From sequence record PV390659.2: a stretch of 64,000 nt of DNA; one strand, 5' to 3'. Of this stretch, positions 10,465-11,248 are shown piece by piece (position 1 is the first letter of the stretch; each line of letters begins with the position of its first letter). The position numbers were made by a program, and so were the translations under genes. The DNA comes from Escherichia phage vB_EcoM_P8. The notes under the pieces were generated by a model that made no database searches, had not been told where the DNA came from, and worked only from the letters and a program-made list of their open reading frames with translations.

Positions 10465-11045
10465 TGATTAAATTGGTATTCGCTTATTCTCCGACTAAAA
10501 CAGTCGAAGGCTTTAATGAATTAGCATTCGGCTTAGGTGATGGTTTACCATGGGGACGAGTTAAAAAGGACCTTCAGAATTTTAAAGCTCGTACTGAAGG
10601 CACGATTATGATTATGGGTGCTAAAACGTTCCAGTCATTGCCTACATTACTTCCAGGTCGTAGACATATTGTAGTGTGTGACCTCGAGCGTGATTATCCT
10701 GAAACTAAAGACGGTGATTTAGCACATTTCTATATTACATGGGAGCAGTACATAACTTACATTTCTGGCGGTTCAGTTCAAATATCAAGCCCTAATGCAC
10801 CATTCGAGGCTATGCTTGACCAGAATTCTAATGTAAGTGTAATTGGCGGACCCGCTCTACTATATGCTGCATTACCTTATGCAGATGAAGTAGTTGTTTC
10901 TCGCATCGTTAAAAGGCATCGTGTTAATTCAACGGTTCAATTAGATGCAAGTTTTCTTGATGATATAAGCAAACGTGAAATGGTTGAAAGTCATTGGTAT
11001 AAAATAGATGAAGTAACAACCCTTACGGAATCAGTATATAAATGA
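10464..11045 (+). CDS. frd: Dihydrofolate reductase
   Basis: 193 aa, [31 protein letters not shown]...; DHFR fold motif (GDGLPW); T4 frd length. Confidence 0.9.
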
Positions 11046-11248
11046 GCAATAAATTAAAAGTTAAGGATGTTCCTAATGCTATGGCTCTTTTTATTTGCCG
11101 GCAGATGCATCAAGGGCCTATGACACCAAAACAATATCTTAAAGGTGAGCGTTCTTTAGGATTTACTCGCAAAGCAAAACAAATGGTTAAATTAGGATAT
11201 AAGCCTAACTTTGCCAAATATCCTTCTACATATTCTTGGATGAACTAA
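11042..11248 (+). CDS. Hypothetical small basic protein between frd and td
   Basis: 68-aa ORF; start overlaps frd stop (ATGA) and stop overlaps td start (TAATG), i.e. translationally coupled on both sides. Confidence 0.45.

Follow-up and report, generated by a model that had tools for sequence, protein, structure and literature searches.

A small gene of 68 codons lies between the dihydrofolate reductase gene frd and the thymidylate synthase gene td in a stretch of 64,000 nucleotides from Escherichia phage vB_EcoM_P8 (PV390659.2; hereafter, the window), and is best understood as a probably dispensable accessory gene of the phrog_9550 family that occupies a variable slot in Tequatrovirus genomes. 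The full explanation, in which this gene is dispensable, sits in a variable slot, is exchanged between phages, is translated by coupling to its neighbours and encodes a binding protein, is considered likely. That the gene is real, that the slot is polymorphic and that lateral exchange has taken place are, taken jointly, held with high confidence. The gene is referred to here as Y, while X designates an unrelated gene of 115 residues (RB32ORF229c) found at the same place in other phages. The window is a Tequatrovirus (T4-like) segment, and the region around Y is 100% identical to that of Escherichia phage vB_EcoM_BMB16. The features discussed below are collected in Table 1.

Table 1. Coordinates in the window of gene Y, its neighbours, their overlaps and the associated sequence tracts.
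Feature	Position	Strand	Description
frd (dihydrofolate reductase)	10464..11045	+	Upstream coupling partner; 94% amino acid identity to T4 Frd
Tract of high identity to Dhakavirus JS10	11034..11390	+	Y 95–100%; first ~150 nt of td 81–96%
AATGA 5-nt repeat, left copy	11041..11045	+	Right copy 206 nt away
Gene Y	11042..11248	+	ATG-started ORF; 68-aa basic protein, phrog_9550 member
ATGA overlap, frd stop/Y start	11042..11045	+	Y ATG 11042–11044; frd TGA 11043–11045
TAATG overlap, Y stop/td start	11246..11250	+	Y TAA 11246–11248; td ATG 11248–11250
AATGA 5-nt repeat, right copy	11247..11251	+	Pairs with the left copy
td (thymidylate synthase)	11248..12108	+	Without intron; downstream coupling partner; mosaic relative to T4 and G4498 td alleles

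The first-pass annotation had described a basic ORF of 68 residues wedged between frd and td, coupled to the former through ATGA and to the latter through TAATG, and both the ORF, with the same translation, and the two overlaps were found exactly so. The product has a mass of 7.9 kDa, a pI of 10.26 and a net charge of +11, with 13 lysine and arginine residues against two aspartate and glutamate residues, while the GC content of the gene (35%) is close to that of the window (36%). Y has stop/start overlaps with both of its same-strand neighbours, as is characteristic of a coupled operon gene, and the stop codon of Y and the ATG of td have one base in common. The same TAATG is present at the boundary between Y and td in phages Marfa, 4S and JS10. 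The start of td is taken as the ATG at 11248, which opens a T4-homologous protein (MKQYQ...), rather than the TTG at 11236, inside the end of Y, that is given by the mechanical list of ORFs.

Regarding its translation, the ATG of Y is preceded by no usable Shine-Dalgarno sequence at positions -5 to -12, the only candidate being a GGAA at -17 to -14, and a weak Shine-Dalgarno-like GGATGA is located within the last codons of Y (11230–11235), ahead of td. Because the ATG of Y lacks a well-placed Shine-Dalgarno sequence, reinitiation after frd is presumed, and Y is probably expressed by coupling. Under this scheme, Y would be carried on the frd-td-nrdA message and translated by termination-reinitiation at ATGA, the context used for td in T4, and td would then be started at TAATG. 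Distant homologues of Y hold good Shine-Dalgarno sequences at normal spacing, such as the AAGGAGG of phAPEC8.

Several lines of evidence bear on whether Y is a genuine gene, as the first-pass annotation had suspected. Residues 1–68 of its product align with positions 1–68 of the 68-position phrog_9550 profile HMM (E 1.3e-45), and all 33 members of the alignment of Y relatives match the same profile. A tblastn search with Y retrieved 237 phage records, and the full-length family proved to be tiny and phage-only: a profile search of 1.84 billion proteins clustered at 50% identity yielded 11 representatives, and 40 were counted when clustering was at 90%. When compared with its homologues in four other genera (JS10, Marfa, CIP9 and 4S), at dS values of up to ~1.9, Y exhibits a dN/dS of 0.06–0.17, compared to 0.07 for thymidylate synthase and 0.11–0.27 for dihydrofolate reductase, a result that indicates purifying selection on Y as strong as that on Td. 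The identities of both proteins are likewise comparable, since Y is 81% identical to its counterpart in Marfa versus 73% for Td, and 68% versus 75% in the case of CIP9. On these comparisons, Y is a real gene conserved in phages, and more than a chance ORF.

It could be argued that Y is non-functional, namely an ORF arisen by chance, the remnant of a decayed homing endonuclease or a mere spacer, given that the ORF is short, matches no domain and has no strong ribosome-binding site of its own in the window phage. This is, however, extremely improbable in view of the strong purifying selection across genera, the full-length conservation of the family, the good Shine-Dalgarno sequences of homologues elsewhere, and the lack of similarity to nuclease or NUMOD-type domains. 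A structured RNA hidden within Y was considered as a cause of conservation at the DNA level and ruled out, as the sequence yields no Rfam match at E <= 1 and its predicted folding is not unusually stable (z-score of +0.87 against shuffled sequences).

Y is not a new gene: more than 100 GenBank genomes already list it as a hypothetical protein. The exact protein is found on 332 public contigs, nearly always under that label, and identical depositions include AIS73551.1 and XPO54506.1, the latter from phage vB_EcoM_BMB16. It belongs fully to phrog_9550, from which it differs in nothing and for whose members no function, structure or phenotype has been described; a literature search for the Y peptide, phrog_9550 or RB32ORF229c returned no match. 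Taken alone, Y matters little, being one more uncharacterised small phage gene that is already in the databases. Two copies bear odd names, "DUF4858" in phage Shinka and "flagellar biosynthesis protein" in PYPS2T, both of which are evidently spurious; for DUF4858, hmmscan against Pfam-A assigned no family at E <= 10 to Y or to any of its 33 relatives. In JS10 (NC_012741, L013:2501-2707), Y was left unannotated, as an "intergenic" gap of 200 nt between frd and td, while only a truncated Y of 42 residues is annotated in IME339 (P0018) and in Klebsiella phage EI (P0043). T4-like or phAPEC8-like sequences also appear under odd hosts, as in "Campylobacter phage B15", "Pseudomonas phage vB_PSGBLB0006" and a 171-kb "Bacillus cereus" contig (PJZ22134.1), and these host labels are likely to reflect contamination or mislabelling.

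The comparison of the frd-td junction across T-even genomes, which the first-pass annotation had proposed, demonstrates that this junction is variable. Among 556 phage records matching the flanks (Tequatrovirus-like), Y is located between both of them in 135. X, at >=90% identity, occupies the slot in 363 records, and is the gene found there in RB14, RB32, RB3 and G4498. The direct overlap of the T4 type is found in approximately four of 60 records of a spread sample, two of which are T4 itself. In T4 (AF158101), the end of frd and the start of td share the four nucleotides ATGA with nothing between them, so that the direct overlap stated in the first-pass annotation is correct and T4 carries no equivalent of Y at this position. 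Across the records compared, the frd-td gap thus behaves as a polymorphic slot with at least three states, which are Y, the unrelated X and neither of them, and the textbook arrangement of T4 is the exception among its sequenced relatives. Y shows presence and absence between core genes together with alternative occupants, that is, the behaviour of an accessory gene of a variable slot, and its absence from viable relatives such as T4 suggests that it is dispensable. An attempt to derive allele frequencies from IMG/VR through exact junction patterns was dropped, because it gave too few matches, and of the 15 scored as "direct junction" 12 corresponded to a chance AT-rich 20-mer.

The T4 junction is otherwise closely similar to that of the window. 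Both have the same 3' end of frd, the same 5' end of td and the same ATG context, in which the ATG of T4 td is equivalent to that of Y, and they differ in that T4 lacks the 206 nt carrying Y. Removal of one AATGA copy and the intervening DNA (206 nt) from the window results in the exact T4 junction. Nevertheless, this repeat is no proof of a deletion, because it arises automatically from the two start/stop overlaps. The td genes themselves also differ, as that of T4 is interrupted by a group I intron with I-TevI, whereas that of the window is intron-less.

The alternative occupant, X, is like Y a small gene, present in the same slot in ~360 Tequatrovirus records, and in other genera the two are found together. 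Unlike Y, which overlaps both neighbours, X in Tequatrovirus has a short intergenic spacer on either side, towards frd and towards td. Homology between X and Y was considered and rejected, with an hhalign probability of 0.2%. X is located at L002:1666-2013 in G4498 and at L003:2669-3016 in RB3, with relatives at L005:2643-2996, L006:2624-3004, L007:2326-3004 and L016:1839-2586. Its family comprises 581 phage records by tblastn and is the commonest occupant of the frd-td slot; it includes tandem paralogues in CIP9 and in the L016 contig, conserves a C-terminal motif (G-R/T-F-x-K-x-G-x-x-x-Y-F) and has no match in Pfam, NCBIfam or PADLOC.

Other small ORFs of the gene 32-frd-td-nrdA region of T4, such as frd.1 (DUF5417), frd.2, frd.3, nrdA.1 (DUF4326) and nrdA.2, resemble Y in being small, co-directional, variable among relatives and tightly packed with core genes of nucleotide metabolism. 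However, they have no sequence kinship with Y, which is absent from T4 and hence bears no T4 gene name.

Outside Tequatrovirus, Y is maintained in several genera, so that the ORF is neither missing from the relatives of the window phage nor unconserved among them. The gene order frd-X-Y-td is found in Klebsiella phage Marfa (Marfavirus), Serratia phage 4S, Enterobacter phage CIP9 (Kanagawavirus), which holds two X paralogues, and a metagenomic contig (L015), and the order frd-Y-td is found in Dhakavirus JS10. In a Roskildevirus-like contig (L016), Y lies directly upstream of frd, and the related isolate FBB1 is devoid of it. The homologue of phAPEC8 is located 35 kb from td on the opposite strand. 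Beyond the Straboviridae, Y homologues are embedded in long arrays of small co-directional uncharacterised genes of large phages, one of these arrays being near a Tad2-like gene, and in three other large-phage contigs the homologue stands among small ORFs with neither td nor frd nearby. As these homologues are far from td, the adjacency of Y to td and frd may be historical and not functional.

The first-pass annotation had presented Y as an insertion at a hotspot for mobile DNA. Y is indeed absent from T4 and has moved laterally, but nothing marks it as a peculiar insertion, and the direct overlap is the minority state. The idea that foreign DNA was recently inserted into an ancestral direct frd/td overlap can appeal to the presence of that overlap in T4 and in the Dhakavirus-like contigs L026, L035 and L036, to the seamless nature of the 206-nt difference, and to the transfer of Y between Tequatrovirus and Dhakavirus, which implies its acquisition in one of these lineages. 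However, four T4-like lineages further removed from the window phage have Y at the same place, preceded by X, few isolates show the direct overlap, and Y presents no endonuclease, transposase, terminal repeat or anomaly in composition, all of which makes a recent insertion rather unlikely. Because Y is directly upstream of td in those four lineages, its loss from T4 is no less plausible than its gain in the window lineage, and T4 would then represent a reduced state.

Mobility of Y on its own account, as the term mobile DNA would imply, found no backing. A search for the features of self-mobile elements (GIY-YIG, HNH, Seg or Mob) detected no nuclease domain, DNA-binding module, transposase or terminal repeat, and the repeats flanking Y are restricted to short chance repeats and the trivial AATGA. 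Instead, the movement of Y looks like ordinary homologous exchange, judging from the pattern of divergence around it.

A clear case of such exchange involves Dhakavirus JS10, with which the window shares the tract of high identity given in Table 1. Identity rises in a sharp step at 11034, while outside the tract it is 70–86% in frd and 55–80% in the rest of td. Accordingly, dS between the window and JS10 is 0.11 for Y, compared to 0.89 for frd and 1.86 for td, and codons for the same amino acid differ at four of 67 positions in Y, 57 of 158 in frd and 108 of 238 in td. These figures establish, at the level of sequence comparison, that a short tract bearing Y was recently exchanged laterally between Tequatrovirus and Dhakavirus. 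Synonymous divergence of Y is below that of both flanks in every inter-genus comparison (window 11042-11245 against L005, L006 and L007), and not in JS10 alone; against Marfa, dS is 0.99 for Y and 2.97 for frd, and saturated for td, although with 68 codons this difference is only suggestive. This low divergence could be explained if Y had been transferred laterally more than once, or if its synonymous sites were under constraint.

The most economical mechanism for the exchange of Y between phages would be homologous recombination during co-infection, through the conserved flanking sequences of frd and td, and it may be aided by double-strand breaks that I-TevI introduces about 525 nt downstream, in intron-less td genes. 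Co-conversion of the DNA that flanks the cuts of homing endonucleases is established in T-even phages (PMC2988022). The homing site of I-TevI in td is about 550 nt away from Y, which is thus within the reach of such co-conversion, and the region is mosaic between phages. The td gene of the window has about 93% identity to exon 1 of T4 td, whereas its identity to G4498 is 96% in the first ~120 nt and drops to ~60–70% around 11420–11480 and once more beyond 11930; Tequatrovirus has several distinct td alleles in circulation. In contrast to the homing systems I-TevI, Seg and Mob (PMC2988022), no nuclease is encoded by Y, which is found both with intron-containing and with intron-less td. Hitch-hiking of Y on I-TevI homing events is a plausible conjecture, drawn by analogy with these systems. 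A slot with three states within the range of I-TevI co-conversion could also serve as a natural marker for studies of recombination and homing.

With respect to the protein itself, Y and its relatives have no match in Pfam or NCBIfam even at E <= 10, nor do they match PADLOC, a collection of defence and not of anti-defence proteins. A sequence search of the PDB with the Y profile retrieved only chance matches (Fab light chains and Dkk2). An AlphaFold2 model built from the 33-sequence alignment is confident and compact (pLDDT 87, pTM 0.65), with predicted helices at residues 13–24, 29–39 and 43–49, a lysine-rich N-terminal arm and an aromatic-rich C-terminal tail. Apart from members of its own family, this model has no structural neighbour in the PDB or BFVD, and its structural matches in these two databases include neither a helix-turn-helix nor another known DNA-binding fold. 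Nevertheless, even the fold is not secure, because a model from a shallow alignment was poor (pLDDT 56) and the BFVD model of a homologue superposes poorly on that of Y (TM 0.56). Invariant or near-invariant positions include K4, K6, P11, R20, K34, F41, M48 and an L51-G52-Y53-x-P55 motif. A metal site is unlikely, because the single cysteine and histidine vary in distant members.

On the basis of its size, its charge (+11) and its slow evolution, Y may lack enzymatic activity and act by binding to a conserved polyanionic partner, which could be a nucleic acid or the acidic surface of a phage or host protein. This proposal is a tentative one, possible although on the doubtful side. The product would act stoichiometrically, through a compact predicted three-helix domain of ~7.9 kDa and its lysine-rich arm.

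A different role has to be weighed in the light of the gene neighbourhood, in which Y would be a dedicated partner or regulator of the thymidylate-synthesis module, either as a subunit or adaptor of the Td/Frd dNTP complex or as a modulator of td translation. Y is coupled immediately upstream of td in Tequatrovirus, Dhakavirus, Marfavirus, Kanagawavirus, 4S and L015, it still abuts frd after its relocation in the Roskildevirus-like L016, and both its conservation and its dN/dS resemble those of Td. However, T4 and most Tequatroviruses dispense with Y, the linked cases are all in the Straboviridae, where shared ancestry may explain them, and neither the phAPEC8 homologue, on the other strand and 35 kb away, nor those of the three large-phage contigs are near td. 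A dedicated role in this module is consequently quite improbable. A bolder variant, in which Y is an unrecognised small subunit or regulator of Td/Frd with a new fold, acting in the dNTP-synthesising complex and lost by the T4 laboratory strain, is regarded as very unlikely, although it would explain both the linkage of Y to td/frd in at least six T4-like lineages and its slow, Td-like evolution.

On the other hand, Y could be a counter-defence or host-takeover factor directed against an immunity or competitor-phage function that only some strains possess. Y is present in some phages and absent from others between the same core genes, its slot has an alternative occupant and it is laterally exchanged, a combination that serves as the defining signature of phage accessory regions (bioRxiv 10.1101/2023.04.06.535777), and a function of this type would explain the patchy presence of Y; distant homologues in arrays of small genes, one of them near the Tad2-like gene, point in the same direction. 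Contrary to typical anti-defence genes, which evolve fast, Y evolves slowly, with the low dN/dS given above and 60–81% identity across genera. Moreover, the Y sequence is absent from the published phage accessory-gene screens examined, which do not mention frd or td. A counter-defence role is therefore unlikely, and the tentative reading of Y as a polyanion-binding accessory protein is preferred. Its conservation, approximately at the level of thymidylate synthase, is unusual for an accessory gene, and its model is without structural neighbour, both of which make Y a reasonable target for pull-down and deletion experiments.

Two members of the wider set of matches deserve separate mention. In P0026, a protein of 1402 residues, six separate stretches match the Y profile (E 1.6e-8), each covering only positions ~9–29, and this match is probably an artefact of repeats or low complexity. 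P0009, a metagenomic variant of Y with 73 residues, holds an insertion of five residues (TTPKH) just before MTPKQ, which resembles a small tandem duplication and falls in the loop that connects helices 1 and 2. This insertion indicates that the loop tolerates changes in length, and distant homologues vary there too.
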